Shown one piece after another: positions 3,104-56,318 of a stretch of 64,000 nt of DNA. Under the pieces are notes generated by a model. That model was not told where the DNA came from, ran no database searches, and was given only the letters and a program-made list of their open reading frames with translations. Position 1 is the first letter of the stretch. Each line of letters starts with the position of its first letter. The stretch is from a bacterium. Its GTDB lineage: Bacteria; Patescibacteriota; Minisyncoccia; JAUYLV01. The DNA lies in the NCBI GenBank assembly GCA_030649025.1, contig JAUSGO010000028.1, positions 1,074 to 65,073 of the forward strand, read 5' to 3'. The position numbers were made by a program, and so were the translations under genes.

Positions 3104-3145
3104 GTGCGCATTATAACACGACGGGTCCGCGATTAACTATACAAA

Positions 3146-3176
3146 ACCCCGCCGGAAAGGCGGGGTTTTGATTTTG
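3146..3176. terminator. rho-independent terminator downstream of the surface-protein gene (minus strand)
   Basis: Hairpin aaaaccccgcc-ggaaa-ggcggggtttt flanked by T/A runs. Confidence 0.5.
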
Positions 3177-3193
3177 GTTTTTGCCGATGAGCG

Positions 3194-5050: not shown

Positions 5051-5243
5051 ATATGTAAGGCTTTTTGCCTTAAATAATGATAATTTTAATTAAGGATTCA
5101 GTTTAGCATCGATATCAAATTCTGTCAAGTTCTCCAAAGGGAAAACGGTAAATACTGAATCAAGTCGTAAGCGCCTTAAAGTATATCACAGATAGCGTTT
5201 TTAACAGAAAAAGCCGTATGTGGAAAAGGAGTTGATGTCTCAT

Positions 5244-16429: not shown

Positions 16430-16990
16430 TTGCGGTTTGAACGATTCTTGGCTATGCTGGAGACAGTGGAACACTATCCGGACCTCAAAGCCAAATTGCG
16501 CCTAGTGAAAGATTTTCCCACTCCCGGAGTGGAGTTTTATGATATAACACCTCTTTTCGAAGACACCAAGGCCTTCCGAAAAGCCATCGACGCAATAGCG
16601 GGTTTTTATAAAGACCTAAGAGTCGACAAAGTGGTGGGAATTGACGCGCGAGGATTTTTGGTTGCAAGCCCCGTTGCCTACGTTCTTGGAGCCGGCCTTG
16701 CGCTGGTGCGGAAAAAGGGGAAACTTCCCTCTGAAATTATCCGCGAGCACCACGAGCTGGAATATGGAAAATCATCGCTCGAGATACATACGGACGCGAT
16801 AAAAAAAGGAGAGCGCGTGGTTATTGTTGATGATGTTCTGGCAACCGGCGGAACTGCGGGCGCGGCATTGCGCCTGGTGCAGAACCTCGGCGGTAATATC
16901 ATTGGACTTGATTTTCTGGTGGAGATCACGAAATTCGAGGGGAGAAAAAAATTTCCCGACCATACCATCCATTCACTAATTGTTTACTGA
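16430..16990 (+). CDS. apt: adenine phosphoribosyltransferase
   Basis: PRPP-binding motif VVIVDDVLATGGTAGAA; VVGIDARGF; typical length about 180 aa. Confidence 0.85.
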   Translation: MRFERFLAMLETVEHYPDLKAKLRLVKDFPTPGVEFYDITPLFEDTKAFRKAIDAIAGFYKDLRVDKVVGIDARGFLVASPVAYVLGAGLALVRKKGKLPSEIIREHHELEYGKSSLEIHTDAIKKGERVVIVDDVLATGGTAGAALRLVQNLGGNIIGLDFLVEITKFEGRKKFPDHTIHSLIVY

Positions 16991-16998
16991 AATTAAAA

Positions 16999-17385
16999 AT
17001 GAGCGGAAAACTCATCATTGGCATTGTGATCATGTCTACCCTGGGCATCGTGGGGCTTGCCGTTTGGCAACAGCAAAAGCGTCTTCCGGAGCTTGAGGCG
17101 CGCCGTCCCGCGCCGCCCGTGACGCCTCCGCCGGGGCTTTTGGGCAAAGACGGGAAAAATCAAAGCGGGCCGCTTGATTTTGCGGCACTTTTTGGCAACC
17201 TAAAGCCCGCAAAGCAAGAATGCTTCCGAGAAAAATTCGGCCAGGAACGACTTAACCAGATGCTCGCAAATCAGGCTTTTGTCCCGGCGCCCGAGGACAA
17301 CAGCATCATCGGCGAATGTTTGCTTGCCGGCGCTACGTTCCAGGAAAGTGCTCCGTCGACCACGACAGAATCGGCAGGACCGTAG
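16999..17385 (+). CDS. hypothetical small membrane-anchored protein
   Basis: N-terminal TM helix, Pro-rich segment; no motif. Confidence 0.4.
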   Translation: MSGKLIIGIVIMSTLGIVGLAVWQQQKRLPELEARRPAPPVTPPPGLLGKDGKNQSGPLDFAALFGNLKPAKQECFREKFGQERLNQMLANQAFVPAPEDNSIIGECLLAGATFQESAPSTTTESAGP

Positions 17386-17453
17386 GTTCTTTTTATAGTA
17401 CCCTCTTGAACCCGTGACAAGAAACTCTTTGTCTACACCTGGCGGATGAAACT

Positions 17454-17481
17454 TTGACAGAACGTCCAAAAAATATATACT
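17454..17481 (+). promoter_or_regulatory. sigma70-like promoter
   Basis: TTGACA - 16 nt - TATACT, followed by GGAGGTG RBS and TTG start. Confidence 0.4.
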
Positions 17482-21220: not shown

Positions 21221-21330
21221 TGGCGGAGGAGGGAGGATTCGAACCTCTTGTTCCTGGGTAGCCAATTATTTTCGAGAAACAAGGAAGCTACCCGCAATAT
21301 GCTTCACTGAAGCATATTGCCCCCTTGCGA
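21221..21330 (-). other. orphan tRNA 3' portion (T-arm GAGG-TTCGAAT-CCTCC, acceptor 3' strand, encoded CCA) fused to structured element copy A; tRNA-Ser-like paralog remnant
   Basis: Reverse complement reads ...GGGTAGC[24-nt loop]GCTACCCAGGAACAAGAGGTTCGAATCCTCCCTCCTCCGCCA; no complementary 5' acceptor strand (GGAGGAG) within 150 nt; the 7-bp stem GGGTAGC/GCTACCC echoes the variable-arm stem AGGGTA/TACCCT of the neighbouring tRNA-Ser. Confidence 0.5.
21253..21330 (-). repeat. tRNA-associated two-hairpin structured element, copy A
   Basis: 12-bp perfect hairpin GCAATATGCTTC-AGT-GAAGCATATTGC plus 7-bp stem GGGTAGC/GCTACCC closing 24-nt loop containing GTTTCTCGAAAATAA; ends CCAGG. Confidence 0.6.
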
Positions 21331-21398: not shown

Positions 21399-21489
21399 TG
21401 GCGGAGGGGGTGGGATTCGAACCCACGAGGGTATTGCTACCCTGACGGTTTTCAAGACCGTTGCCTTCGACCACTCAGCCACCCCTCCG
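21399..21489 (-). tRNA. tRNA-Ser(UGA), type II with long variable arm, CCA encoded
   Basis: GGAGGGG-TG-GCT-GAGTGGTCGAA-GGC-A-ACGGT-CTTGAAA-ACCGT-[CAGGGTAGCAATACCCTC]-GTGGG-TTCGAAT-CCCAC-CCCCTCC-G-CCA. Confidence 0.85.
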
Positions 21490-21520
21490 CCATAGTACGG
21501 GACAAGACTGACTCGCTCTT

Positions 21521-21600
21521 CCTGGGCAGCCAATCATCTTTAAGAAACAAGGAAACTTGCCCGCAAAATCTGAAGACATTCAGATTTTGCCCACTCCTCC
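21521..21600 (-). repeat. tRNA-associated two-hairpin structured element, copy A' (immediately 5' of tRNA-Ser)
   Basis: 12-bp hairpin GCAAAATCTGAA-TGTC-TTCAGATTTTGC (different sequence, perfect pairing = covariation vs copy A) plus stem GGGCA/TGCCC closing loop with GTTTCTTAAAGATGATT. Confidence 0.6.
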
Positions 21601-32540: not shown

Positions 32541-34067
32541 ATGCATCCATCGCGTATATTCTTTTATAGCTGTTCTGCGTTCGGCGTGGGCATATGCGTC
32601 TCGGCTATCTTTCGCATTCCGGAGAGCATGACCCTGGGCATGCTGGGCATTGCGACGGCATCACTGGCCGTGGCCGTTCTGACAAAAGTGCGTATTAAAT
32701 ATCTTGTGCCGGCGCTTGGCATTATAGCTTTTGCTCTCGGTATTATTCGGTTAGGAGACGTCGAGCAGCGGTGGGAACATGAGCGCAATGAATTTCTTCT
32801 TGCCGCACAAAACCTGTCCCGAGTATTCCCGAGGGAGGCGCCGTCAGGCATAACTGCAACCGTCGCGTCGCGCGAGAGGCTCGAGAATTCTACTCGATAC
32901 GAACTCGAACGCATTTCTCTGGAAGATCGCTCCCGGACTCGTTGGCTTCTTACGTATACAGGATATGAAATATTCGACCCCGGAGACCGCATCCTTCTGC
33001 AACGGCCGCACTTCGATACCTCAACGACGAGCGAAGCTTTTTTGAAGCGCGACGGCATTGCCGGCGCCGTGAGGTTCCCTGAAAAAATCGTTCCGCTCGG
33101 AAGTTCCTGTCCTACGTTTTTGGCGAATGCCTCATGCGCCCGCTATAGAGCTTCCGAGCAACTCTCCCATCTGAAAGAATCTTTTGAAAAAAATCTCCGT
33201 CTTGCGCTTCCCGTACCGCATGCCGCGCTCGCGGCCGGACTTTTGCTGGGCACGCGCAGCGCTCTGTCGCAGGAAATGAAGGACGATTTCAGGCGCACGG
33301 GAATGAGCCACATTGTCGCAGTTTCCGGCTACAACATCACTATTCTTATCCTTGCCATTGCCACCCTGATGGGATTTTTTATGTTGCCCAGATCCTTAAC
33401 ATTCTGGGCCGTCACACTGTTCATTATACTTTTTACGCTTCTCACCGGAGCCGGAGCGTCGGTGGTGCGCGCAGCCCTCATGGGATTCTTGCTTATTCTT
33501 GCGCAAAAAGAATCACGCATGTATTCGGCAAGGATTGCCCTTTCTTCCGCCGGGGCTCTCATGCTTTTTCAAAACCCGATGCTTTTGCGATACGATCTGG
33601 GCTTCGTGCTTTCGTTCCTGGCAACCGCAGGACTTTTGGTGCTTTATCCGCTTCTTGAAGAGCGAGCGCGCGAAAATAAGAAACTCTCCGGCATTAAGGA
33701 TGTCGCACTGCAATCCGTCTCCGCACAGTTATTTGTCTTACCTGTCATCATCATTACATTCGGTTCTATTTCTTTCGTATTTCTCATCTCTAACGTTGCC
33801 GTTCTCCCATTCATTCCCCCCACGATGTTTTTCAGCTTCCTTGCCGGTATCGCGGGGTTTTTCGGCGAGCATATCGGAAACATCGTTGCGTTTCCCGCAT
33901 ACATTCTGCTTGATTACGAGATTATCATCGTTGCCACGTTTTCAAAAATTCCTCACGCATCTCTTGCTCTGGCGTCCGCTTCTTTGCGGTATGCCGCAGG
34001 ACTTGCCTCCACCATAGGAGCTGCCTTGCTTGTATGGAAACTGAAAAAACTTCGTGAAACTTTTTAA
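32541..34067 (+). CDS. comEC: ComEC/Rec2 DNA-uptake channel (DUF4131 + competence domain), without C-terminal MBL domain
   Basis: Multi-TM; competence motif RRTGMSHIVAVSGYNITILI; about 10 predicted TM helices. Confidence 0.75.
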   Translation: MHPSRIFFYSCSAFGVGICVSAIFRIPESMTLGMLGIATASLAVAVLTKVRIKYLVPALGIIAFALGIIRLGDVEQRWEHERNEFLLAAQNLSRVFPREAPSGITATVASRERLENSTRYELERISLEDRSRTRWLLTYTGYEIFDPGDRILLQRPHFDTSTTSEAFLKRDGIAGAVRFPEKIVPLGSSCPTFLANASCARYRASEQLSHLKESFEKNLRLALPVPHAALAAGLLLGTRSALSQEMKDDFRRTGMSHIVAVSGYNITILILAIATLMGFFMLPRSLTFWAVTLFIILFTLLTGAGASVVRAALMGFLLILAQKESRMYSARIALSSAGALMLFQNPMLLRYDLGFVLSFLATAGLLVLYPLLEERARENKKLSGIKDVALQSVSAQLFVLPVIIITFGSISFVFLISNVAVLPFIPPTMFFSFLAGIAGFFGEHIGNIVAFPAYILLDYEIIIVATFSKIPHASLALASASLRYAAGLASTIGAALLVWKLKKLRETF

Positions 34068-37423: not shown

Positions 37424-37816
37424 ATGGCCATCCTCCGTTCAAAAATAACCATCGTAGTTGCATCGGGTTTCACCATTATGTTTGGCGCTCTTGGCGCAAG
37501 GGCATTCATGCAGGAGCGCGCATTACGGCGGGACATTGCCAAGCTTGAGTCGGGCATCGCGAAGGCCGAAGAAAAAAACAAAGAACTTGTACATTTGGTT
37601 GAATATTTTTCCAAACCCGAACAACTTGAAAAAGAAGCGAAGGTCCGGCTTAACCTTAAAAGGCCCGACGAAGAAGTGCTGGCGCTCTCATCCGAACCCC
37701 CATATATTCCAAGCGCTTCCGGCAATCCGAGCATGAGCGTGCAAACCACGACATTCCCCTTCTCGCAAATTGTAGATTTTTTTAAATCCTTTTTCACCTA
37801 TTCGCTTAAGGAATAA
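37424..37816 (+). CDS. septum formation initiator family protein (FtsB/DivIC-like)
   Basis: Single N-terminal TM followed by coiled coil (LRRDIAKLESGIAKAEEKNKEL) as in FtsB/DivIC. Confidence 0.55.
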   Translation: MAILRSKITIVVASGFTIMFGALGARAFMQERALRRDIAKLESGIAKAEEKNKELVHLVEYFSKPEQLEKEAKVRLNLKRPDEEVLALSSEPPYIPSASGNPSMSVQTTTFPFSQIVDFFKSFFTYSLKE

Positions 37817-37820
37817 TTTT

Positions 37821-37891
37821 GCGGGCGTAGTATAGTGGTAGTACGTGACCTTCCCAAGGTCAAAGTGTGGGTTCGATTCCCATCGCCCGCT
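37821..37891 (+). tRNA. tRNA-Gly(CCC), CCA not encoded
   Basis: GCGGGCG-TA-GTAT-AGTGGTA-GTAC-G-TGACC-TTCCCAA-GGTCA-AAGT-GTGGG-TTCGATT-CCCAT-CGCCCGC-T. Confidence 0.85.
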
Positions 37892-37912
37892 CATGCGAGG
37901 TTAGTGGAGTGG

Positions 37913-38032
37913 GCTGAATGCTCCAGTGGAGCATTCAGCGGGAGACTGCGGTGTTTCGGAAAAATAAAAGTCTCCCAGGAAGTACGATTGCTTCCCAAGC
38001 AATAAGCACGAGTCCGATTCTCGTATCCCGCT
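37913..38032 (+). other. chimeric tRNA-Gly(CCC)-like paralog: structured element copy D replaces the 5' third; anticodon arm, T-arm and acceptor 3' strand retained with compensatory substitutions
   Basis: GGCTGAATGCTCC-AGTG-GAGCATTCAGC / GGGAGAC[23-nt loop with GTTTCGGAAAAATAA]GTCTCCC / AGGAA / GTAC-G-ATTGC-TTCCCAA-GCAAT-AAGC-ACGAG-TCCGATT-CTCGT-ATCCCGC-T; stems differ from true tRNA-Gly but remain paired. Confidence 0.5.
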
Positions 38033-38045
38033 CACGTTGAGAAGA

Positions 38046-38068
38046 CCGCACTGTTGTGCGGTTTTCTT
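38046..38068 (+). terminator. rho-independent terminator
   Basis: ccgcac-tgtt-gtgcgg followed by ttttctt. Confidence 0.55.
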
Positions 38069-38143
38069 GTTGAGGAGCGCGGAGAAGTAAATCGTTCCCG
38101 ATGGATATTTGCATAATGACGAAAATTATGGTATGCTTTAAAC

Positions 38144-40291
38144 ATGGAAATAAACGATCAGGCAAGCGTATACTTCGCCCGCACTAACTTTCGCGGGGAA
38201 GACAGGATTTTCGGCATTAAGACCAAAGACCGCAGACAGCACATGTACGTGGTCGGCAAGACCGGCTGCGGCAAGTCGGTCATGCTTAAAAACATCGCCG
38301 TGCAGGATATTCAGAACGGCTCGGGTATTGCCGTGGTAGACCCGCATGGGGAACTCGTAGAAGAAATCCTTGCCTCCATACCCCCGCATCGTATCAACGA
38401 TGTGATTTATTTTAACCCAGCCGATGCCGAATTCCCCATTGGCTTTAACGTGCTGGAGGTTCCGGACCCGAAATACAAACATGTGGTCGCTTCGGATCTC
38501 ATGGGGATCTTCACGAAAATTTGGGCAAACGTCTGGTCGGCGCGCATGGAGTACATCATGCAAAACTGCATAATGGCCTTACTCGATACGCCCGGAACCA
38601 CCCTGCTTGGCATTCCGCGGCTTTTGGTTGACCGGGAATACCGCACGAAGATCATTGCAAACATCAAGGATCCTGTAGTGAGGGCATTCTGGACGCAGGA
38701 GTATGAGAATTATACCGACCGTTTGCGCTCGGAAGCCATCGTGCCCATCCAGAACAAAGTAGGCCAGTTCCTGAACACCTCCATGGTGCGCAATATCATG
38801 GGCCAGCCCAAAAGCGGTTTTAATGTGCAGGATGTTATGAATTCTGGAAAGATTCTCTTGGTGAACGTCTCAAAGGGACGGATTGGCGAAGATAATTCGG
38901 CATTGCTTGGCGCCATGATGATCACAAAATTACAGCTTGGCGCCATGGAAAGAGTCCGCGTTGCCGAGAAGGATCGCAAGGATTTTTATCTCTATGTTGA
39001 CGAGTTCCAGAACTTCGCGACGGATTCATTCGCTTCGGTGCTTTCGGAAGCCAGAAAATACCGACTCAATCTTGTCATTGCGCATCAATACATCGGACAG
39101 CTGGTTACCGAGCAGTCCACCAAGGTGCGGGATGCCGTATTCGGCAACGCCGGGACCATCATTACATTCCGGGTAGGAGCGGTTGATGCAGAATTTCTGG
39201 AAACAGAGTTTACTCCGGAATTCCTGCCGGAAGACCTGGTGAATCTCCCCAATTATCATATTTACACGAAACTCATGGTTGACGGCGTCACTTCTAGGCC
39301 ATTCTCCGCAACAACGCTCCCCCCCATACCGGTGGAAGAATCTGATCAAACGGTAGAAAAGATCATTAAAATATCGCGCGAGCGTTATTCTCTGCCCCGC
39401 AAAGAGGTTGAGGAGCGCATTATGCGGTGGAGCGGCATGGATTTTTCGGAAACCGAAAGCACTCCGGAAGATGAGTTTGTTTTCGGACCGAAAACTGCCG
39501 CTTCCGGACAAAGGGGAGCGTCTGACGCTCGGCAATCTGGATCTTTTTTAAACAGAAAAAACGATAAGGCTCCGAGCGTTCCTTTGCAGCTTTTCAACGC
39601 CGTATGTGCGCGATGTAAAAAACAGACCGAAGTGAATTTTCAGCCCGATGGCAGACGGCCGGTGTATTGCAAGCTATGCCTGCCCATAATCCGCTCGGAG
39701 GAGGTGAAAAAACTAAAATCCGAAACATTCGCAAGTTCCGTAGCAGAAAAACCGGCATCTCAACGAAATGTTGTCGGGGCATATGGCACGCCCCGGCCCA
39801 CCCCGCCAAATCTCCAGCAAAGCGAGCCGGCTCCCCTGCCCGCAAGGCGTCGCCCCGGCCCTGGCGCGGATTTTCCAACCGTTCGGCCAACCTCTTTTAA
39901 GGTTGCGCCCGCCGTCCCAACTAACATCGTGGATCTTTCAATCCCAAATAAAATTCAACAAGAGAAGTCAGGAATTCTCAAAGAAGTCGGGACCGGGCCG
40001 AAGGTCGGGATAAAAGCTATTTCCCTCAAGGATGCCCTTCAAATGGACGGACTGACATTTTCCGGTAAAAGACTGAAGCGAAAAGAAGTGGATCTTACGG
40101 CTTTGCGCGAAGCGCTGGGTGCATCGTTAGAATCGCGCGAGCTTCCCGATGCGCCAACTTCACCAGAACCTTACCTCGCCCCGCAGCAAGGCAGACGGGG
40201 CGAGCCGAAACATGAAACGGGCTCCGTGCCACAACACAAAGGCGCCCCACTCCGTCCGGGCCAGATTGTGACGCTTAGAGCAGAGGAGTAG
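38144..40291 (+). CDS. VirD4/TraG/TraD-like (DUF87/AAA-like) P-loop ATPase with C-terminal CxxC-x17-CxxC zinc ribbon and Pro-rich disordered tail
   Basis: Walker A VVGKTGCGKSV, VVDPHGEL, Walker B FYLYVDEFQNF, LVIAHQYIGQL (TraD/TrwB-like AHQ motif); zinc ribbon CARCKKQ...CKLC; low-complexity tail. Confidence 0.55.
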   Translation: MEINDQASVYFARTNFRGEDRIFGIKTKDRRQHMYVVGKTGCGKSVMLKNIAVQDIQNGSGIAVVDPHGELVEEILASIPPHRINDVIYFNPADAEFPIGFNVLEVPDPKYKHVVASDLMGIFTKIWANVWSARMEYIMQNCIMALLDTPGTTLLGIPRLLVDREYRTKIIANIKDPVVRAFWTQEYENYTDRLRSEAIVPIQNKVGQFLNTSMVRNIMGQPKSGFNVQDVMNSGKILLVNVSKGRIGEDNSALLGAMMITKLQLGAMERVRVAEKDRKDFYLYVDEFQNFATDSFASVLSEARKYRLNLVIAHQYIGQLVTEQSTKVRDAVFGNAGTIITFRVGAVDAEFLETEFTPEFLPEDLVNLPNYHIYTKLMVDGVTSRPFSATTLPPIPVEESDQTVEKIIKISRERYSLPRKEVEERIMRWSGMDFSETESTPEDEFVFGPKTAASGQRGASDARQSGSFLNRKNDKAPSVPLQLFNAVCARCKKQTEVNFQPDGRRPVYCKLCLPIIRSEEVKKLKSETFASSVAEKPASQRNVVGAYGTPRPTPPNLQQSEPAPLPARRRPGPGADFPTVRPTSFKVAPAVPTNIVDLSIPNKIQQEKSGILKEVGTGPKVGIKAISLKDALQMDGLTFSGKRLKRKEVDLTALREALGASLESRELPDAPTSPEPYLAPQQGRRGEPKHETGSVPQHKGAPLRPGQIVTLRAEE

Positions 40292-44573: not shown

Positions 44574-44753
44574 ACGTGTTAATTATCTCAAAAATAAAAT
44601 GATTAAAAAATTTTCTTCCCCCAAATCGGGAAACCGTGAATTCGTTTTTACCCCCAAAATTGAATACAAATTAGTCGCCAAGCAAGGCGAACCTTTCAAA
44701 CTTACAATTTCCTTTTTGGTGCCGCGGGAGAGAGTCGAACTCTCATGAGGTTA

Positions 44754-44831
44754 TCCTGGGCGGATTATTATTTTTCAGAAACATCGTAGCCGCCCGCGAC
44801 ATCTGAAATCGTTCAGATGTCGCCCCTCGCA
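44754..44831 (-). repeat. tRNA-associated two-hairpin structured element, copy B
   Basis: 12-bp hairpin GCGACATCTGAA-CGAT-TTCAGATGTCGC; stem GGGCGG/CCGCCC closing 26-nt loop with GTTTCTGAAAAATAATAAT. Confidence 0.6.
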
Positions 44832-44862
44832 GCATTTTGAGTGCTGTGCGTCTGCCATTTTC

Positions 44863-44929
44863 TCCTGGGCGACCGACCATTTTCAAGAAGCATTGTAGTC
44901 GCCCGCGAAATGGTCTCCCAGACCATTTC
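44863..44929 (-). repeat. tRNA-associated two-hairpin structured element, copy C
   Basis: 10-bp hairpin GAAATGGTCT-GGG-AGACCATTTC; stem GGGCGAC/GTCGCCC closing 24-nt loop with GCTTCTTGAAAATGG. Confidence 0.55.
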
Positions 44930-44950
44930 TCCCACCTTGGCGCACCCAAT

Positions 44951-45031
44951 GTGCCCGGGAGAGGAGTCGAACCTCCATGCCTTGCGGCACACGATTTTGA
45001 GTCGTGCGTGTCTGCCATTCCACCACCCGGG
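44951..45031 (-). tRNA. tRNA-Leu(CAA), type II, CCA not encoded
   Basis: GCCCGGG-TG-GTG-GAATGGCAGA-CAC-G-CACGA-CTCAAAA-TCGTG-[TGCCGCAAGGCAT]-GGAGG-TTCGACT-CCTCT-CCCGGGC-A. Confidence 0.8.
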
Positions 45032-45111
45032 CGCTCAAACAGATACGTTTATTCTACTGAATTTTTTCGTATTGTCAAAGCGTGGTTTTCTTGTTACACT
45101 GGGTGAGTCGT

Positions 45112-47403: not shown

Positions 47404-49482
47404 TTAAACGCGCTCAACGGAAAACACGTTCTTGACCGACCTAATATCGCCGATAAGTTCCGTCAACTCATCCATGCTCCGCACCTCCACCGTCACAATC
47501 TGCACCCCCTCGCCGTCAGGCGTATCGTAGGCGGTAAGAGACAAAATATTGAAGCCGGATTTCGAAATAGTTTCGCTTACGTCTCTTAACAGGCCAACGC
47601 GGGTTTGTCCACGCACCTTGATGGTCGCCGGATGCAGAGCAAGCGCATCTTTCTGCCAGGAGACGGGTATATGCCGTGGGGCTTTCGCTTTTTTTAGATT
47701 CGCGCAGGCCGCCTTGTGAATGGTGATGCCGCCCTGCACCGTCGTGTATCCTTCGATCGCTTCGCCGGGCAATGGAGAACAGCATTTGGCAAGACGCGTC
47801 AGAACCCCATGCATTCCTTTTACAACAACTCCTATGCCATCTGGAGAAGAAGTCGGCTTTTTCTCCTTTGACTGCGCCGCCATCTCTTCGGGCATCAATT
47901 CAATCTTTTCAGCACGTTCCTCTTCTTGATCTATTACATCGCGTCTCTTGATCCACGCGGTAATTTTCTTTCTTGCTTCGGATGTTTTTATGAAAAACAG
48001 CCAGTCGCGGCTTGGCTGGGGGTCTTTGCGCGTCATAATTTCCACAAGCATGCCGCTCTCCAGCGCCTGAGAAAGGGGAATGATGCGCCCATCCGCTTTG
48101 GCTCCTGCGCAGCGGTGTCCGATCTCCGAATGTATAGCATATGCAAAATCAACAGCGGTCGCGCCGACCGGCAGGTCAATGATATCGCCTCTCGGGGTGA
48201 ATACGAAAATCCGCCTTTTAAGGAACTCAAGCTTCAGCGCATCCACGAATTCTTTAGACCCCTTGGCGGCTTTCTGCCATTCTTGAAGCTGATCGATCCA
48301 TTTAAGTTTGCTTCCGAGTCCTGCGTTGAGAACTTTTTTGGATGTCCTTTTTTCTCCCTGGCGTTTTTTATAATGCCAATGGGCGGCAATGCCGTATTCG
48401 GCCTCCTCGTGCATTGCGGGCGTACGGATCTGAAACTCGGTAATGCGCCCGTCCACACAGAATACCGTGGTATGCAAACTTTGGTATCCGCTGCCTTTGG
48501 GAAGCGCAATGTAATCCTTGATGCGTCCCGGGAGCGGCGTGAAATGTTTATGCAATACTCCCAGCGCCCGATAGCATTCTTCGACGCTTTTTACAATAAT
48601 ACGAAGCGCCACCAAATCGTGAACCTTTCCCAGGTCCATATCGTGTGCAAGCAGTTTTTGGTAGAGAGACCAGTAATGCTTCGGGCGCGCGTGCAGTTCC
48701 AGGGGCACAAGATCGTCGGCGGCAAGATGTTCTTTTATAATAGGAACTACTTTTTCTGCATACGCCTCGCGCTCCGCATAAACCTTATCTATCCTCTGTA
48801 GGAGCCATTCATATTCCTTCGGATGCAGATGCGGGAAGGCGAGGTCCTCCAGTTGCCCCTTCCATTCACCCATGCCCAGACGACTCGCGAGCGGCGCATA
48901 AATATCCATGGTCTCCTGCGCGACTCTTTGGCATTTTTCGGTCGTACACGTGCGCAGCGTTTGCATGTTATGAAGCCTGTCGGCAAGCTTGATGAGCGCT
49001 ACACGGATGTCCTGGGCAGTTGCAAGAAACATTTTCCGCAAAGTTTCGGTGCGCGCCGCACTACCCCCGGTGGGAATTTTTTCGAGCTTGGTGACGCCTT
49101 CCACAAAAAAAGCGACTTCTTCTCCGAAGATTTCTCGGATCTCATCAATCGTGACGGGAGTGTCTTCCGCAACATCATGCAAAAGTCCCGCTACAACCGT
49201 CGAGGTATCCATGCCCACATCGGCAAGCAATGAGGCAACCGCCGTCGGATGCGTAATGTAAGGCTCGCCGCTATCGCGCTTCTGGCTTTGGTGGGCTCTT
49301 GCGGCAACGTCATACGCGCGCTCAATCGTTTCCGCGTCAAGATGCGGATTTTTTTTTATAACAACAATGAGTTGATCCTTGGTCATACCAAATACTAGAG
49401 CCCAATGCAAGAACGCATGCCCCCACCGGGCTTCAATGATGAGAAGCGAAGCGACGAAACCCCGTGCTACGCCGCAGGGCAT
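47404..49482 (-). CDS. rel: bifunctional (p)ppGpp synthetase/hydrolase RelA/SpoT homologue
   Basis: HD hydrolase domain (HDVAEDT), synthetase domain, TGS and ACT domains in canonical order. Confidence 0.85.
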   Translation of the reverse strand: MPCGVARGFVASLLIIEARWGHAFLHWALVFGMTKDQLIVVIKKNPHLDAETIERAYDVAARAHQSQKRDSGEPYITHPTAVASLLADVGMDTSTVVAGLLHDVAEDTPVTIDEIREIFGEEVAFFVEGVTKLEKIPTGGSAARTETLRKMFLATAQDIRVALIKLADRLHNMQTLRTCTTEKCQRVAQETMDIYAPLASRLGMGEWKGQLEDLAFPHLHPKEYEWLLQRIDKVYAEREAYAEKVVPIIKEHLAADDLVPLELHARPKHYWSLYQKLLAHDMDLGKVHDLVALRIIVKSVEECYRALGVLHKHFTPLPGRIKDYIALPKGSGYQSLHTTVFCVDGRITEFQIRTPAMHEEAEYGIAAHWHYKKRQGEKRTSKKVLNAGLGSKLKWIDQLQEWQKAAKGSKEFVDALKLEFLKRRIFVFTPRGDIIDLPVGATAVDFAYAIHSEIGHRCAGAKADGRIIPLSQALESGMLVEIMTRKDPQPSRDWLFFIKTSEARKKITAWIKRRDVIDQEEERAEKIELMPEEMAAQSKEKKPTSSPDGIGVVVKGMHGVLTRLAKCCSPLPGEAIEGYTTVQGGITIHKAACANLKKAKAPRHIPVSWQKDALALHPATIKVRGQTRVGLLRDVSETISKSGFNILSLTAYDTPDGEGVQIVTVEVRSMDELTELIGDIRSVKNVFSVERV

Positions 49483-49588
49483 GGCGCAAAGTTCTGGTGC
49501 CGAACACGCCTTTCTCTTCTACTGTATCCCCGATGGGGACACGTTGACAAGTATGGCGTTTATCATATAATGAGCGCTCGGATGTTTT

Positions 49589-50053
49589 TTGAAAATCTTA
49601 TTATCGTCTTGTCATCGGAACGGAGGGACAATGCTCTACATTATTTTTGCGGCAATCGCGCTTGGAGCGGCGTCCCGGTTTTTATGGCTGCAATATCACA
49701 GAAAGCCCGGAGACGCATTCCACGCCAAACGCGGAATTACCATAACCCTACTTGCCACCGCCGCGCTCTTCTCTATTGAATACGCGCTGTGGAACAACAT
49801 TGTGATACTTTTCAAGTATCTGCCGCTTCTTGTGCTGCATTTGTTTTTTGCCATTCCAACGCTCATCGCACTTGGCGTCATTACGGCAACCGGTATTGCA
49901 ACCTATCGCACAACGTTCCGTACAAAACGCGAAGAACATGACCGGCCCCTGCCCGCGCGCACGCATCGGTTTCTTGCAAAATACTTTTGGTATGCGTGGA
50001 TTGCAACAATCACCACCGGCCTTATGTTTTTCGTCGCCTCTATCCGCTCATAG
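49589..50053 (+). CDS. hypothetical polytopic membrane protein (DUF420-like)
   Basis: 4 predicted TM helices; probable start at MLYIIF (about 49631). Confidence 0.45.
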   Translation: MKILLSSCHRNGGTMLYIIFAAIALGAASRFLWLQYHRKPGDAFHAKRGITITLLATAALFSIEYALWNNIVILFKYLPLLVLHLFFAIPTLIALGVITATGIATYRTTFRTKREEHDRPLPARTHRFLAKYFWYAWIATITTGLMFFVASIRS

Positions 50054-50116
50054 CTCCTTTTTCCGGGGGCTTTTTGTATTTCGTCACTACGCTTGCGTTT
50101 TTCCTAAAAATGCGCC

Positions 50117-51082
50117 ATGATAATTCTTCCGTTGTTTGACAATTTTGCAGGCAAACAGGGGCAAAAGAAGGGAGACGAGATGATGCGTGCCCTATTGATA
50201 GAACTTTCGAGAAATAAATGGATAGCCCGCCGGGTCACGAAAAATGGATGGGCTTGCCGTATGGCGCGCAGATTCGTTGCGGGCGAGACCCTCGAGGATG
50301 CTATTGGGACGGCAAGACGTCTCAATTCCGAAGGACTTGCCGTGAGCCTCGACTACCTCGGGGAGCACGCGCAAGGTCGCGAGGCCGCCCATTGCGCTGG
50401 ACTTACCTATCTCCGGATTCTTGAGCGCATCGCAAATGAGGGGCTTGACGCGAACATTTCCGTAAAACTCACCCAGCTTGGACTCGAGGTGAACGACGAT
50501 CTGTGCGAAGAGCTTATCACCTCGCTCTGTGTCCATCTGCGTGATTCTTCCCAAATAGTGCGCGTCGACATGGAGGGTTCCGCTTACACCCAGCGAACGA
50601 TTAATGTCGTAAAAAATGTTCTACAGAGAATGCCATCAATCGGTATCGTCATCCAGGCGTATCTGTACCGCAGCGAGCACGACATTGAAGAACTTTTAAA
50701 GCGCGGCTGCCGGATACGGCTTTGTAAGGGCGCGTACCGGGAGAAGCCGAATATCGCGTTTCCCAAAAAACGAGATGTGGATGCAAATTTTTTGAAACTT
50801 ATGAAAACGCTTCTTGCAAGCGGCGTCTATCATGGCATCGCCACGCACGATGAAAACATGATCGAGGCGACAAAAGACTTTGTTGAGACACGCGGAATCA
50901 AAAAAGATGCATTCGAGTTCCAGATGCTCTACGGTATTCGAGGAGATATTCAAAAAAAACTAGTGCACGACGGCTATCGCGTACGCGCATACGTTCCCTA
51001 CGGAACGGAGTGGTTTCCGTACTTCATGCGGCGGCTGGCCGAACGCCCCGCGAATCTTTTCTTTCTTCTCCGCAATCTCTAA
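50117..51082 (+). CDS. proline dehydrogenase (PutA-type PRODH domain only)
   Basis: PRODH beta8-alpha8 barrel motifs: VSLDYLGEH, ISVKLTQLG, VRVDMEGSAYTQ, IVIQAYLYRSEHDI, RIRLCKGAY; probable true start about 50180. Confidence 0.6.
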   Translation: MIILPLFDNFAGKQGQKKGDEMMRALLIELSRNKWIARRVTKNGWACRMARRFVAGETLEDAIGTARRLNSEGLAVSLDYLGEHAQGREAAHCAGLTYLRILERIANEGLDANISVKLTQLGLEVNDDLCEELITSLCVHLRDSSQIVRVDMEGSAYTQRTINVVKNVLQRMPSIGIVIQAYLYRSEHDIEELLKRGCRIRLCKGAYREKPNIAFPKKRDVDANFLKLMKTLLASGVYHGIATHDENMIEATKDFVETRGIKKDAFEFQMLYGIRGDIQKKLVHDGYRVRAYVPYGTEWFPYFMRRLAERPANLFFLLRNL

Positions 51083-51308
51083 ATAACTGACGGGCCATAA
51101 ACCCTCATCTCGGCGTACCCATGCGCCGATTTTTATTTATTCCGCAAAAAACCGATACTATGGGCATCGGTGCCCGCCCCACCCTTGACGAACAATCCCC
51201 AACGGGGCTTGAACATCCCTGGGCTTTACTTGTTATGCAGGATTATGCTAGAGTGCAGATGTTATTTTCCAAGTGAATACTCAGAAAAAATCGTAAAGGA
51301 GGGTCTCC

Positions 51309-53387
51309 ATGAAAAACGAAATCCCGAACGACATTAACGGACTTTTGGAACATGACCGAAGCGAACAGGGAAAGAAGGTCTTTCGCGGAACTTGCCGCGA
51401 ATACCTGGATATTGTGCGGGCTAATCCTGGGATCGTGCGACTTGCCCACGCTACCGTCTACGATCACGTTATCATGGCGGCCGGCGTAACCACCGTCGAC
51501 GTTGAAAAGGACCCGCGCCTGCGTCGGCTTTACAGCGCGGAAACCTTGCGGGAACTTAATTTTTTCAAAGATAAATTTTTCGGAATTCGCGATACGGTGG
51601 ATGCTATCGGACGCTACTTCCAGGGAGCCAAAAATCGTGGCGAGGAGTCTCGACAGATCCTCTACTTCGTGGGGCCCGTCGGATCTGGAAAAACTTCTTT
51701 GGTTGAAGAATTAAAGAAGGGTATGGAGAGTGCGCCGCCCGTCTATGCCGTCAAGGATTGTCCGCAGCAAGACGCCCCGCTCCTTCTTATCCCCAAGCAC
51801 CTGAGAAAAAAGATGGAGGGGCTGCTCGGCGTGAGAATTGAGGGAGATATTTGTCCCGTCTGCCGCTATCGCCTCACCGAAACCGACAAGATCGAACGGC
51901 TAACCAAGGATTGTTTCGCGAACGAGAAGTGTCTCATCGACAACGACAAGAAAAAAGGAGTCGACTGGCCGGCGTTCTGGAAAATGTATCATCAAGAGTT
52001 CGATTATCGTGACGAGGCGGGGAATGTGCTTTGGGAAAAGTATCCCGTGGAAATGGTTTCCTTCTCCATCCGTGCTCGGCGCGGTATCGCTTCGGTCCCG
52101 CCGACCGACCCGAATAATCAGGATACCAGCGTCATTTTCGGCGATATCGATATTTCCAAGATCGACCGATATCCGGAAGATCATCCGCTGGTATTGCGTC
52201 TGAACGGCGCCTGTAACCGCGGAAACCGTGGCATTGTGGAATTCATCGAGATCTTTAAGAACCCGCCGGAGTTTTTACATCCGGTCATTACCGCTACGCA
52301 GGAGAAGGCCATTCCTTCGCCGGGCAAAACCGCAATGATCTATTTTGACGGCGTTATCATCGCCCACTCCAACGAACCCGACTATAACAAGTTCATTTCC
52401 GACAATTCCAACGTCGCCATCCAAAATCGCGTCTACCCCATCCGCGTTCCTTATGCGATCGAAATTTCCGAGGAGACCGCGATATACGAGAAGTATCTGA
52501 AAAGCACCGATTTCAAAGGAAGCGTCGCGCCACACACTCTGGAGGTCGCGGCGATGTTTTCGGTGCTGACGCGTTTGAAGCCGTCGCAGAAGTGCGATCT
52601 CTTGACAAAGTTGTATCTGTATGACGGCCGCGCAGTCATCGAGAAGGGACAGGCCAAGCGCATTGATATTTCGGAATTGAAAGAGGAAGCAACGAACGAG
52701 GGCATGTCTGGCATTTCCACGCGCACCATCTTCAAAGCCATCGATTATGCCATCTCCATGAGCGATCATGATTGCATCAATCCGCTTACTATCCGCGAGG
52801 CTATCATGGAAATGCTCAAAAAAGAGCACCTTGCCGATGATATGCGTATGCGATACGTGGAAGAAATTCTGCGCGGGATCGTACACAAGGAATATCTGAA
52901 GATCCTGGAAAAAGAAATCACTCGCGCCTACGTGCATGCATACGAGGATCGTGCCGAAACATTCTTCCAGAATTACTGGGATAACGTAGCGGCCTGGTGC
53001 CTTCACAAAAAGGTCAAGGACCGCGCTACCAAGGAAGAGCGCGATCCGGATATCGCCAGCATGTCGGCAGTCGAGGGGCAGCTTGGCCTTTCCGGAGGAG
53101 CTACCGAAGGATTCCGGCACGATTTCATTGCCTACGCGCAGGAAGTACTTCGCGGAGGAGGAAAGCTTTCATACAAGAGCTATGAGCCGCTTAAGGAAGC
53201 CATTGAGGGCGTGCTTACCGCATCTCTCCGCAAGGAAGCCCGTATTATTACCGGGGCAACCGCGCGCGACGATGAACAGGGTAAGCGGTACGACGCCATG
53301 ATCGAACGTATGCGAACAATCGGATACCATCCGCACTGCTCGGAAGTGATTCTCCGATATGCGTACAATAACGTCTGGAAAGACTAA
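51309..53387 (+). CDS. prkA: PrkA-family serine protein kinase (YeaG-like, AAA+ N-domain)
   Basis: ILYFVGPVGSGKTSLVEELKKGME...YAVKDCP...ICPVCRYRL typical of PrkA/YeaG. Confidence 0.8.
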   Translation: MKNEIPNDINGLLEHDRSEQGKKVFRGTCREYLDIVRANPGIVRLAHATVYDHVIMAAGVTTVDVEKDPRLRRLYSAETLRELNFFKDKFFGIRDTVDAIGRYFQGAKNRGEESRQILYFVGPVGSGKTSLVEELKKGMESAPPVYAVKDCPQQDAPLLLIPKHLRKKMEGLLGVRIEGDICPVCRYRLTETDKIERLTKDCFANEKCLIDNDKKKGVDWPAFWKMYHQEFDYRDEAGNVLWEKYPVEMVSFSIRARRGIASVPPTDPNNQDTSVIFGDIDISKIDRYPEDHPLVLRLNGACNRGNRGIVEFIEIFKNPPEFLHPVITATQEKAIPSPGKTAMIYFDGVIIAHSNEPDYNKFISDNSNVAIQNRVYPIRVPYAIEISEETAIYEKYLKSTDFKGSVAPHTLEVAAMFSVLTRLKPSQKCDLLTKLYLYDGRAVIEKGQAKRIDISELKEEATNEGMSGISTRTIFKAIDYAISMSDHDCINPLTIREAIMEMLKKEHLADDMRMRYVEEILRGIVHKEYLKILEKEITRAYVHAYEDRAETFFQNYWDNVAAWCLHKKVKDRATKEERDPDIASMSAVEGQLGLSGGATEGFRHDFIAYAQEVLRGGGKLSYKSYEPLKEAIEGVLTASLRKEARIITGATARDDEQGKRYDAMIERMRTIGYHPHCSEVILRYAYNNVWKD

Positions 53388-53592
53388 TCTTTCCTGAAGT
53401 TCGGAGCCAAGACCGCTTGGCTCTTTTTTATTTCCAAGCGATCGGGCAGCGCATAATAATCTCCGTTTTGACGTCTAGAGAGCGCAGGAGCCCGAGAGCT
53501 TAATTTCCTTTATTTTTCCGTCCGCCGTTGACGGCGGGCAGGAAATCCCCTACCCTTAATAGGATATTGTTCATTGCCAATTTAAGACAAGT

Positions 53593-54816
53593 TTGACAGG
53601 AGGCCATATGGCTATATTCCGAGATTCTTCCAGAGAAAGCGACCGGGGCGCAGAAGACCGCGCCAGGCACCGAGAGCTCGTACGAGAATCGGTTCAGGAA
53701 AACATCGGGGATATCATCGGGGAAGAAGATATCATCGGCGTATCCGGAAATAAGAAAATCAGAGTTCCCATCCGTGGTATCAAGGAGTACCGTTTCGTTT
53801 ACGGAGAAAACGGTGGGGGCGTTGGCGAGGGCAAAGAAGGCATGGAGCCCGGTGACACCTTCTCTAAGCAAGGAGGGAAGGGCCGTATGCCGGGACCCGG
53901 CGGAGACGATCCCGGCGAGGAAATATATGAGACCGAGATCTTTCTCGACGAGCTTCTTGATATTGCCTTCGAGGACCTCATGTTGCCGGAAGAAGCGAAA
54001 AAGAGGCTTCGGGAGATCGAAGTAGAACAGCATGCCAAACGCTATGGCTACCGAAAGGCCGGACCCCCGCCGCGCCGATCAAAAAAGCGCACAGCGAGAG
54101 AACGGCTGAAGCGCAAGAAGGCAACCGAACGCGCAACGCTGGAACGGGCAGAAGACCAAGCCTTGTCTCCCGCCACACCCCTGGACGGCCAGGAAGAACA
54201 TTTTCCCTTCCACAATCAGGACCTTCGGTATCACTACGTAAAGAAAACGAAGCGCCGTGAATCGAACGCCGTGGTGTTTTGCGTCATGGATGTTTCCGGT
54301 TCCATGGATATTACCAAAAAATATCTTGCGCGCATGTTCTACTTCCTGCTCTATCGATTCCTAAAAACGAAATACGCGCGAGTAGAAGTGGTGTTCATCG
54401 TACACCACACCGTGGCCCGGGAAGCCACCGAACAGGAATTCTTCCACCACGTGGAATCCGGCGGCACCCATATTTCCAGCGGCGCCATAAAGGCGCTTGA
54501 GATCGTCGATGAGCGCTTTGACCCCACGGTATGGAATATTCACTACTTCCACTGCTCCGATGGCGAAAATTTCGAGCATGATAACCCGGCAGCGATCAAA
54601 GCGTTTCGCCAGCTGACCGATATTGCCAATCTCGTTGGCTATGGAGAGATCAAGCCGGAAACGGGATTTGACTGGGGAAGCATCACGCCAATCCTTGAAA
54701 AAGAAATTCGCGCGGATAACTTTGCCGTAGTAAAAATCCGAGATCGGAAAGATCTCTGGAAGGCATTCAAAGAACTTCTCTCCAAGGAGCAGCTGGATCG
54801 GAGGAAAACATCATGA
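53593..54816 (+). CDS. YeaH/DUF444 (UPF0229) family protein with vWA-like domain
   Basis: N-terminal R..L...V.ENIGDIIGEEDIIG...KIRVPIRGIKEYRFVYGENGGGVGEG; vWA-like MDVSGSM; conserved partner of PrkA. Confidence 0.75.
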   Translation: MTGGHMAIFRDSSRESDRGAEDRARHRELVRESVQENIGDIIGEEDIIGVSGNKKIRVPIRGIKEYRFVYGENGGGVGEGKEGMEPGDTFSKQGGKGRMPGPGGDDPGEEIYETEIFLDELLDIAFEDLMLPEEAKKRLREIEVEQHAKRYGYRKAGPPPRRSKKRTARERLKRKKATERATLERAEDQALSPATPLDGQEEHFPFHNQDLRYHYVKKTKRRESNAVVFCVMDVSGSMDITKKYLARMFYFLLYRFLKTKYARVEVVFIVHHTVAREATEQEFFHHVESGGTHISSGAIKALEIVDERFDPTVWNIHYFHCSDGENFEHDNPAAIKAFRQLTDIANLVGYGEIKPETGFDWGSITPILEKEIRADNFAVVKIRDRKDLWKAFKELLSKEQLDRRKTS

Positions 54817-56318
54817 CCGACTGGACCATAAAAGACTTGGAACGTTATGAAGAGGCCATTTCCAAGATCGCCAAAGAAGAGGGGCTGAACTGCTTTGAAC
54901 AGGAGTACGAGATATGCGACCATGCGGAGATGATCGGCTATATGGCCTACAACGGTATGCCCGCCCACTACCCGCACTGGTCTTTTGGGAAATCATTCGA
55001 GCGCAGTGAGACTCTGTACCGCTACGGCGTGCAGGGCCTGCCCTACGAGATGGTGATCAACGCCGACCCATCTCTTGCCTACCTCATGCGCTCCAATTCT
55101 CTTGCATTGCACATTGTGACCATAGCGCATGCGGGATGTGGTCATAATGATTTCTTCAAGAATAATCGATGCTTCAGGCACACCCGACCCGAGTATACGA
55201 TGCAGCGCTTCAAGACACATGCGGACCGGGTGCGCGAATACACCAAAGACCCAAGCATCGGACGCCGACGCGTAGAGCAGGTGCTGACCGCGGCGCACGC
55301 CTTATCGCTGCATCGGAGGCGAAACATTGAAGCGCCGCGCCTGAATCAAGCCGAACAGCGCAAACGACTATTTGAATCTGCTCAGCCGCGAAAAGACGAG
55401 TGGACCGACATCCACTCTCGGCCCGACTATAAGACCCCGGATCTATCACGTGTCCCGCTTGAGCCGGAGGAGGACATCCTGCTTTTTATCAGGGACTTTA
55501 ATCCGTCCCTTGAATCTTGGGAAAAAGACTTGCTTACTATCGTTGCCGAGGAATCCGATTACTTCTGGCCGCAGATAGAAACCAAGATCATGAACGAAGG
55601 GTGGGCAACCTACTGGCACTATAAGATTCTGAACAGCCTGAAACTTCCTCCAGAATTGCACCTGGAATTCCTTAAACTGCACAATCAGGTTATCGCGCCG
55701 CACATCGGCTCAATCAATCCCTATCGTCTGGGATTTGAGCTTTTCAAGGATATTTACCGGCGGTGGGAGAATCCCACGCCGGAAGAGAAGGAGAAATATG
55801 GTCTGTCCGGCGGCGAGGGAAAATCGAAAATATTTTCCGTGCGCGCAGCCGAGCGCGATATTTCCTTTCTGCATCAGTATCTGACGGAGGAGTTCCTACG
55901 CCGCTTCTTTTTCGTCGAGTACGCCGAAGATGAAGAAGAAATTATGATCACCGACACGGTGGATGAGCATAACTGGCAAGATTTTCGCGGCCAGATCGTG
56001 CAAAACACTGGATCAAACTCCATTCCCGATATTCGGGTATACGACAGTAACTTCAAAAACGCCCAAACGCTACTTGCCCTGCACTGCTTTGACGGGCGCG
56101 AGCTCCACCCCGAATACGCCGCCCATACGCTGCGTCACTTTCAGACGCTTTGGCGCAGGCGGGTACATCTTTTAACCTGGAATCTCCGGGAAAAAGCATG
56201 CTGGCTCTACACCACGGATCCGTCCGATAAGATAACCCAGCATAAACATTGCGAATCTCCCGATTGCCCATTGCGAAAATGGCTGAAAGAGCGTGGGCAG
56301 GAGCACTTGATATTGTAG
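54813..56318 (+). CDS. SpoVR family protein (YcgB-like)
   Basis: AHYPHWSFGKSFERSETLYRYG...YEMVINADP...HAGCGHNDFFKNN; 4-nt overlap with upstream gene. Confidence 0.8.
   Translation: MTDWTIKDLERYEEAISKIAKEEGLNCFEQEYEICDHAEMIGYMAYNGMPAHYPHWSFGKSFERSETLYRYGVQGLPYEMVINADPSLAYLMRSNSLALHIVTIAHAGCGHNDFFKNNRCFRHTRPEYTMQRFKTHADRVREYTKDPSIGRRRVEQVLTAAHALSLHRRRNIEAPRLNQAEQRKRLFESAQPRKDEWTDIHSRPDYKTPDLSRVPLEPEEDILLFIRDFNPSLESWEKDLLTIVAEESDYFWPQIETKIMNEGWATYWHYKILNSLKLPPELHLEFLKLHNQVIAPHIGSINPYRLGFELFKDIYRRWENPTPEEKEKYGLSGGEGKSKIFSVRAAERDISFLHQYLTEEFLRRFFFVEYAEDEEEIMITDTVDEHNWQDFRGQIVQNTGSNSIPDIRVYDSNFKNAQTLLALHCFDGRELHPEYAAHTLRHFQTLWRRRVHLLTWNLREKACWLYTTDPSDKITQHKHCESPDCPLRKWLKERGQEHLIL

Follow-up and report, generated by a model that had tools for sequence, protein, structure and literature searches.

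The window that we analysed, that is to say the whole stretch of 64,000 nucleotides, contains beside a canonical tRNA-Gly(CCC) gene a segment (37895-38032, hereafter Gly') which we identify with high confidence as a complete second tRNA-Gly(CCC) gene, the D-loop of which is split by a 67-nt member of a two-hairpin family. We conclude that this insertion, which we call element E, belongs to a previously undescribed repeat family, almost confined to spare tRNA gene copies in this lineage of ultra-small Patescibacteria.

The tRNA-Gly locus and its interrupted twin

The canonical tRNA-Gly gene begins 4 nt past the stop codon of a DivIC-like gene and does not encode its CCA end. The 20 nt that separate it from the first hairpin of E (P1) consist of CAT followed by GCGAGGT-TA-GTGG-AGTGG, the latter being the 5' part of Gly' (Table 1). 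E is inserted in the D-loop of this twin, between G19 and A20/21. It starts with P1 (37913-37939), a perfect 12-bp hairpin with an AGT loop in the MFE fold, which is abutted by P2 (37940-37976), a stem-loop of 8 bp formed by GGGAGACT/AGTCTCCC whose 21-nt A/U-rich loop contains GTTTCGGAAAAATAA; an unpaired AGG (37977-37979) follows on the 3' side of P2. The 3' part of Gly' then reads AA, the D-stem strand GTAC, G26, the anticodon arm ATTGC-TTCCCAA-GCAAT, AAGC, the T arm ACGAG-TCCGATT-CTCGT, the acceptor strand ATCCCGC and the discriminator T, the CCA again not being encoded.

Table 1. Features of the tRNA-Gly, tRNA-Leu and tRNA-Ser loci in the window (R1, covariance model described in the text).
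Feature	Position	Strand	Evidence and remarks
Canonical tRNA-Gly(CCC)	37821-37891/2	+	ARAGORN; Rfam RF00005 68.8 bits; 4/4 stems paired
Gly' 5' part	37895-37912	+	Acceptor strand GCGAGGT, U8A9, D-stem strand GTGG, D-loop AGTGG; read from sequence
Element E, Gly copy (67 nt)	37913-37979	+	MFE fold; R1 75.8 bits; pattern match
Gly' 3' part	37980-38032	+	Rfam tRNA local match 37981-38024; ARAGORN on E-less construct; stem bookkeeping
Intrinsic terminator, AGAAGACCGCAC-UGUU-GUGCGGUUUUCUU + U tract	38040-38071	+	Fold -21.7 kcal/mol, z -5.3
E copy Leu_E1	44864-44931	-	R1 82.8 bits; follows GCCAAGG-TG-G (44941-44932) of the tRNA-Leu(CAA) twin
E copy Leu_E2	44755-44823	-	R1 66.8-72.5 bits; in the variable-arm loop of the Leu twin
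tRNA-Leu(CAA) twin Leu'	44717-44941	-	Exons 44941-44932, 44863-44824, 44754-44717; CCA encoded
E copy Ser_dn	21253-21320	-	R1 85.7 bits; followed by T arm, acceptor strand CTCCTCC, G, CCA (21252-21221)
E copy Ser_up	21521-21590	-	R1 67.5 bits; preceded by GGAGGAG-TG-G (21600-21591)

As it is found in the genome, with E in place, Gly' gives no ARAGORN call, and its 3' part obtains with the Rfam tRNA model 21.6 bits (E = 0.05 in a 501-nt search), the gathering score being 29. The in silico deletion of 37913-37979 results in the call of a 72-nt tRNA-Gly(CCC) starting at 37895 at the default threshold, and this call is robust to shifts of a few nucleotides of either border. Gly' begins only 3 nt beyond tRNA-Gly and one intrinsic terminator closes the whole unit, from which we infer that tRNA-Gly and Gly' are presumably co-transcribed. 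This terminator, with which the terminator portion of an Rfam leader model could be aligned and which is absent from the list of a simple terminator scan, has an ortholog in the related contig L011, where it follows a tRNA remnant. The 138-nt Gly' unit itself folds at -59.3 kcal/mol (z -6.2 versus shuffles).

These results bear out the original prediction in so far as it described a canonical tRNA-Gly(CCC) followed by a second tRNA-Gly(CCC)-like unit, with a 3' part carrying the CCC anticodon loop (the sequence that it gave is present to 38032) and a terminator hairpin at the end of the unit. It had further supposed that the 5' third of the twin was replaced by the element; this is refuted by the presence of the twin's own 5' third and by the tRNA-Gly(CCC) call on the E-less construct. 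The option of a tRNA carrying a large 5' insertion, which it had also put forward, was essentially correct as regards the insertion, the site being in fact the D-loop of a full-length gene. As for the structure of the element, the 12-bp hairpin stands, while the second stem has 8 bp and a 21-nt loop instead of the announced 7 bp and 23-nt loop.

The comparison of Gly' with the canonical gene concerns 21 stem pairs, of which nine are the same, eight are changed on both sides and still paired (the compensatory changes announced for the stems are therefore real), two are changed on one side and still paired, and two, A4.C69 and G13.G22, are broken. The unpaired positions are identical in 26 cases out of 29. 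In the T-loop, TCCGATT, a C stands in place of U at position 55, so that Gly' has neither the U54-U55-C56 T-loop nor the fully paired acceptor stem of a functional tRNA, in addition to its G13.G22 mismatch. It had been argued that the stems of a decaying pseudogene would not stay paired. The pairing is there, and the argument is weaker than it looks, because the canonical gene and Gly', all the stems of which differ, are identical at 48 of 71 positions only, whereas the canonical gene and the syntenic tRNA-Gly of L011 share 54 of 71; Gly' need not therefore descend from its neighbour. Judged from these alignments, it would represent an old or foreign tRNA-Gly lineage rather than a decayed copy of the gene beside it, and its stems can owe their pairing to descent from another functional tRNA-Gly lineage or to renewal through gene conversion. 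Gene conversion between tRNA and twin is evident in the related contigs L007 and L015, a process that can preserve stem pairing even where the twin itself is not under selection. In L011, the twin at the orthologous Gly locus has shrunk to a degenerate two-hairpin element and, after it, a 16-nt sequence that repeats the tRNA 3' end exactly, downstream of the intact gene.

Three other ideas on the origin of the twins were tried and rejected. The canonical gene and the twin were taken as reciprocal chimeras of a tRNA from the host and one from an element; once swapped, their acceptor strands pair at 5/7 and 4/7 positions, as against 7/7 and 6/7 in the observed arrangement. The GCGGG at the P1/P2 junction, considered as the missing acceptor strand, pairs 6/7 in Gly' and in the tRNA-Thr twin of L007 and fails in the tRNA-Ser twin, and the idea is unnecessary because the true 5' part of Gly' was found. 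An origin by reverse transcription, looked for through an encoded CCA, proved uninformative, the CCA being present in Leu' of the window and absent from Leu' of L015 and from Gly'.

The element E family

The pattern GCGGG-N9-10-TGYTTC-NNRAA-N11-12-CCCAGGA has five matches in the window against 0.00 expected, which upholds the earlier view of the element as a repeated structured copy; the three tRNA loci account for all of them, always on the tRNA-sense strand. Leu_E1 and Leu_E2 interrupt the twin Leu', situated 10 nt downstream of the canonical tRNA-Leu(CAA) (44952-45032); once both are removed, ARAGORN calls a tRNA-Leu(caa) at its default threshold and at stricter ones. Ser_up and Ser_dn flank the canonical tRNA-Ser(TGA) (21399-21488), and the GGAGGAG strand ahead of the former (within 21600-21591) pairs 7/7 with the acceptor strand in 21221-21252, thereby enclosing the whole locus. 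A search for a hidden tRNA-Ser(TGA) around the canonical tRNA-Ser, conducted on 96,696 brute-force constructs, returned inconsistent and spurious calls only. Every interrupted twin was missed by ARAGORN and Rfam as used on the unedited window.

Five further copies of E were found in four related Patescibacteria contigs, in the neighbourhoods of homologous proteins. In L007, E follows the GG in the D-loop of a tRNA-Thr(CGT) twin (Thr'), in which only the insert and the acceptor strand depart from the canonical neighbour, the 5' acceptor strand being absent. Two copies belong to a tandem array of tRNA-Leu(CAA) twins in L015, the locus being syntenic with the Leu locus of the window. One copy lies upstream of tRNA-Thr(TGT) in L017, and one lies within the comEC reading frame of L011 (R1, 78 bits), the latter being the sole exception to the tRNA context of the family (9/10 copies). 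In the E-positive genomes, eight of the nine tRNAs seen adjoin E, or an E-like two-hairpin element, together with a duplicate, whole or partial, of the tRNA in question. These twins may be full (Gly', Leu'), devoid of the 5' acceptor strand (L007 Thr'), or reduced to 16-20 nt of the 3' end, as in L011 and in L017, where a 17-20-nt repeat of the tRNA-Tyr 3' end lies downstream of the intact gene.

The ten copies are non-coding, measure 60-71 nt and fold individually into the same P1+P2 shape without exception. The covariance model R1, built from them, gives 54-86 bits to the ten copies and at most 19 bits to everything else in about 228 kb, for part of which, namely the window, L007, L011, L015 and L017, the searches were also made with the filters off. 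In the R1 alignment, 16 of the 19 pairs of E have changes on both sides, and 80% of the alignment cells are paired versus 61% in shuffles, none of 500 shuffles reaching the observed values; the paired cells drop to 28-56% in slid controls. The figure for P1 alone, 71%, is low only because the alignment does not bring hairpins with loops of 3 nt and of 4 nt into register. When each sequence is folded singly, P1 has 11-12 bp in nine copies out of ten; in the L017 copy, it contains an internal bulge and has about 9 bp. The P1 sequences of copies from the same genome are almost unrelated, yet always paired: such copies are old and divergent, which is unusual for a recently active MITE (miniature inverted-repeat transposable element), and selection on the folded RNA could be the cause.

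The junctions are constant in the ten copies, with xGG (mostly GTGG) before P1 and AGG at the element end. The ends themselves (GC... and ...CCCAGG) form no terminal inverted repeats. Only GG is common to both junctions, and since this is indistinguishable from a 2-bp crossover site it does not amount to a target-site duplication.

No further E copies turned up around those TrwB and ParB homologues whose gene order is not conserved (L006, L012-L014, L016, L018-L023). Pattern scans of genome and metagenome contig collections yielded chance matches only, with no hairpin and no tRNA nearby, the exact patterns employed there having relied on genome-specific features (the P2 loop) or on one P1 subtype. 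A pattern scan of viral contigs returned nothing, and BLAST against phage and plasmid collections gave no match. At the gathering score, Rfam recognised no family besides tRNA in the window, and in a scan of 37700-38200 with E values up to 10 the element matched no family. Our literature searches retrieved no published description of an E-like element.

Mobile DNA, processed tRNA or tRNA-shaped RNA

Two observations on orthologous sites lead us to consider that E behaves as a small mobile DNA. The first is an empty site in L015: the variable arm of the Leu twin is uninterrupted there (GAGG-GCAA-CCTC), as against GAGGG-[69 nt]-ATAACCTC in the window, and the empty site matching that of Leu_E2 reads GAGGGCAACCTC. 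The second is a filled site in L011, the ComEC of which (71% identical to that of the window) contains a 33-residue in-frame insertion, with no stop codon, that includes a copy of E absent from the comEC of the window. The constant GG at the junctions of every copy is a further indication of movement. E is multi-copy, short, non-coding and present or absent at orthologous sites, all of which are features of MITEs and palindromic repeats.

The explanation that we prefer, to which we assign a probability only a little short of an even chance, is that E is a small mobile DNA of MITE/RPE-like character (RPE, Rickettsia palindromic element), persisting in redundant, co-transcribed tRNA twins. The family would consist of small gene-less, non-coding insertions found almost only in twins beside working tRNAs; they would move at the DNA level by the action of a transposase supplied in trans. 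Gly' would be a tolerated landing place and not a tRNA used in translation, as C55, A4.C69 and G13.G22 indicate, and its paired stems would come from a functional tRNA-Gly lineage or would be kept by gene conversion. The existence of twins in all states of completeness is what is expected of dispensable DNA.

The Leu locus counts against this explanation. Between the window and L015, the ParB proteins of which are 60% identical, Leu' is identical at 28 of 28 nt of its T arm and 3' acceptor strand and throughout its 5' piece GCCAAGGTGG, and the anticodon stem differs by two pairs, both fully compensated; the canonical tRNA-Leu genes, on the other hand, differ at about 22 of 85 positions by manual count. 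The identity of the twin beside diverged canonical genes points to a constraint on Leu' or to its transfer. Furthermore, a neutral landing pad leaves unexplained the origin of so many tRNA duplicates in small genomes.

Some features of the family also sit uneasily with mobile DNA, namely the lack of a transposase and of terminal inverted repeats and the single copy in ten outside a tRNA context. No transposase (Y1, serine or other) was found among the ORFs scanned in the 64-kb window and at the loci of the relatives, and Pfam scans of unannotated ORFs near the E loci disclosed neither a transposase nor an RNA-processing enzyme.

Should E be mere mobile DNA, it would still be an undescribed element with a striking preference for tRNA copies, and a source of hidden tRNA paralogs, invisible to annotation, in Patescibacteria genomes. 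How does a very small genome acquire a duplicate beside nearly every tRNA?

A first alternative makes E a small intervening sequence of bacterial tRNA, excised from the precursor by host enzymes. The ends would be re-ligated in the intron version (for example by an endonuclease and an RtcB-type ligase) and left open in the other, as happens with the intervening sequences of rRNA, and Gly' and Leu' would be working isodecoders. We consider it improbable. It accounts for the invariable sense orientation of E and for its location at single-stranded tRNA sites (after G19 of the D-loop, in the 8-10 linker, in the variable loop), for the recovery of detectable tRNAs upon its removal, and for the fact that the twins share the anticodon, the discriminator base and the first three acceptor pairs with the cognate tRNA. 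The greater conservation of the Leu' exons than of canonical tRNA-Leu between the window and L015, again by manual count, would agree with it, and the abutting P1 and P2 could, on the predicted fold, stack into a rod of about 20 bp offering a plausible handle to a double-strand-specific RNase. Patescibacteria are, moreover, rich in introns and rRNA insertions (PMC13011429).

With its 60-71 nt, E nevertheless falls short of the size of a self-splicing intron of group I or II, which has a catalytic core and runs to at least a few hundred nucleotides, and an identity of this kind was rejected for the 67-nt Gly copy, no ribozyme or intron family having been matched in the Rfam scans; hammerhead, twister, pistol, hatchet and HDV-like ribozymes were all absent from a cmscan of 37700-38200 with E values up to 10. 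An archaeal-type tRNA intron was likewise discarded on inspection of the sequence and folds, since no bulge-helix-bulge can be drawn at either junction with P1 or P2 as inner helix, for want of a 4-bp central helix. The twins have imperfectly paired acceptor stems, and this defect is itself conserved (5/7 in Leu' of both the window and L015), Thr' of L007 has no 5' acceptor strand, and Gly' has C55. In addition, the comEC copy is a multiple of three, free of stops and read through, as befits an element that is not removed from RNA, and it is hard to see what purpose another isodecoder next to every tRNA would serve.

According to a second alternative, which is likewise improbable in our judgement, the twin and E together would form a functional ncRNA, a tRNA-shaped scaffold with an extra two-hairpin domain produced from the same transcript as the tRNA. 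It would act as a mimic of the cognate tRNA, for instance as a decoy, a sensor, a processing platform or a protein-binding handle. Such a role would be in keeping with the strong structural covariation in E, with a 138-nt Gly' unit that folds far better than its shuffles, with the likely co-transcription of Gly' given its 3-nt distance from tRNA-Gly and its own terminator, with the conservation of its loops, with the complete identity of the Leu' T arm and acceptor strand in distant relatives and with the near-systematic pairing of tRNAs and twins. It is opposed by the great unevenness of the twins, which may be complete or truncated, enclose the tRNA in nested fashion (Ser locus) or comprise no more than 16 nt (Gly locus of L011), and by the position and number of E, which vary among orthologous twins, one copy even residing in a protein gene. 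No protein gene associated with the twins or with E was found.

Taken jointly, these two alternatives have an appreciable probability, though one that lies below even. The stronger proposal, that E defines a class of protein-processed tRNA intervening sequences or that the E-twins are systematic tRNA-shaped regulatory RNAs beside almost every tRNA, is unlikely. In either form of this proposal, selection on RNA would maintain both the tRNA body and its hairpin domain. If E is removed from RNA, or if the twin is a functional RNA, we would be dealing with the first small non-self-splicing tRNA intervening sequence, or the first tRNA-mimic family, in bacteria.

Integration at tRNA 3' ends leaving repeats is well established, and the relatives exhibit this classical signature elsewhere (the tRNA-Gly repeat of L011 and the tRNA-Tyr repeat of L017). 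It is nonetheless very improbable that Gly' is an att scar, left by an element that integrated in tRNA-Gly and was then mostly deleted, with E as the remnant of an arm: Gly and Gly' differ in all stems and are not repeats of one another, they lie 3 nt apart, Gly' is full length, its 5' end included, neither an integrase nor any other gene of such an element adjoins it (the TrwB-like ATPase downstream is encoded by a gene conserved in Patescibacteria, which has homologues by the thousand), and E occurs twice in one twin and once in comEC. The structured remnant of integration envisaged originally finds no support here in its classical form.

Comparison with known systems

The non-canonical tRNA introns of archaea are characterised by bulge-helix-bulge motifs at the splice sites (3-nt bulges on opposite strands, with a 4-bp helix between them), may be several in one gene, and have undergone transposition in Thermoproteales. 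E resembles them in that short related inserts occupy more than one position (D-loop, variable region) of different tRNA genes, a single gene harbouring as many as two. It differs from them by its bacterial host, of Patescibacteria/Parcubacteria type (RecG, ComEC, DivIC, ParB, Mfd), by the absence of a bulge-helix-bulge and by the intact intron-less copy that always adjoins the interrupted one.

The intervening sequences (IVS) of rRNA are removed by RNase III without ligation. They recall E as extra stem-loops, sporadic in surface loops of a stable RNA and common in the phylum, and an example was seen in L023; they are known from rRNA and not from tRNA. Group I introns typically exceed 200 nt. 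Those of Patescibacteria tRNA genes are self-splicing and lie almost entirely in the anticodon loop (PMC13011429). E shares with them the phylum and the interruption of tRNA genes (PMC13011429); they reside in otherwise single-copy genes, whereas E, with its 60-71 nt, sits within a second copy, in its D-loop or its variable loop.

On the side of mobile DNA, the ends of IS607-family elements carry subterminal direct repeats as binding sites for the serine transposase TnpA. The family inserts at (G)GG, has GG at its termini and makes no long target duplication (PMC6188088). The xGG before P1 and the AGG end of all E copies are reminiscent of it, a resemblance that we take as a lead only, given that E has about 67 nt and that no tnpA or tnpB was found nearby. 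With MITEs and RPEs, E has in common that it is short (60-150 nt for the type), multi-copy, hairpin-forming, gene-less and present or absent between relatives. In-frame palindromic insertions in protein genes characterise RPEs (PMC10969869), and the copy within comEC of L011 is likewise in frame. E is unlike both in its two different side-by-side hairpins, its lack of terminal inverted repeats, its strict sense orientation, the placement of 9/10 copies in tRNA gene copies, and same-genome copies that are old and differ by compensatory changes. The parallels with RPEs and IS607 are resemblances rather than memberships.

A putative common transcript and tandem twins at tRNA-Leu(CAA)

The sigma-70-like promoter of the tRNA-Leu(CAA) gene in the window is a good one, and a similar TTGACA box is also present at the orthologous position in the contigs L015 and L017 of relatives, which supports a single transcript that would cover the tRNA and its twin, the second gene copy interrupted by the two-hairpin element E. 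In L015, at least two such interrupted twins follow the canonical tRNA-Leu, the second being cut by the contig end; the P1 hairpin of this second twin is identical at 24 of 27 positions to that of Leu_E1, the E copy in the tRNA-Leu(CAA) twin of the window.

Element E in comEC and next to nested tRNAs, and a type II arrangement possibly related to it

A copy of E that is recognised by R1, the covariance model of E, lies within the comEC gene of L011 in frame and gives its product 33 extra residues (ATKEVGVNPPVEDFADKYDASKELALVQESIRT) compared with the ComEC of the window (32541-34067). The window tRNA-Ser(TGA) and the L017 tRNA-Thr(TGT) share their flanks: on the 5' side lie E and AAGAGC...TTGTCCCGT-N5-6, on the 3' side N4-ACGG(G/A)A. 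These flanks place each intact tRNA at the tip of a stem of 6-8 bp, which is itself enclosed in a larger frame that resembles a tRNA.

In a second arrangement, which we call type II, the tRNA is followed by a terminator-like hairpin, a stretch resembling the 5' side of a T stem, two hairpins and a repeat of the tRNA 3' end. This terminal repeat is an exact copy of 16-20 nt, including the CCA in L017. The R1 model did not detect the two-hairpin arrangement in L011 and L017, and type II may represent either a divergent form of E lodged in the T-loop of a twin that has decayed, or the scar of an attachment site.

Features of the window and of contigs of relatives
Feature	Contig	Positions	Strand	Remarks
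sigma-70-like promoter	window	45033-45100	-	TTGACA, 17 nt, TAGAAT; directly upstream of tRNA-Leu(CAA)
E-interrupted tRNA-Leu(CAA) twins	L015	1-260	-	tandem, after canonical tRNA-Leu
E copy	L011	2899-2967	+	inside ORF 2550-4226 (comEC); R1 78 bits
nested tRNA-Ser(TGA)	window	21399-21520	-	
nested tRNA-Thr(TGT)	L017	1740-1860	+	
type II	L011	8600-8736		tRNA-Gly
type II	L017	2566-2709		tRNA-Tyr
23S rRNA gene	L023	15210-18191	+	insertion of about 900 nt, 16550-17460
two large ORFs	window	3194-7019	-	618 and 591 aa
RelA/SpoT	window	47404-49482		
PrkA-DUF444-SpoVR operon	window	51309-56318		

Other genes of the window and of L023

The insertion in the 23S rRNA gene of L023 is closed by a long inverted repeat and contains two tRNAs predicted by ARAGORN, Val-TAC (17235-17310) and Ser-GCT (17332-17408). 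In the window, the repeat scan (families D1-D3) showed that the two large ORFs consist mostly of G-rich repeats with a 12/18-nt periodicity. RelA/SpoT and the PrkA-DUF444-SpoVR operon together form a stress-signalling gene set (47404-56318) that, to our knowledge, is not usual in very small Patescibacteria genomes.
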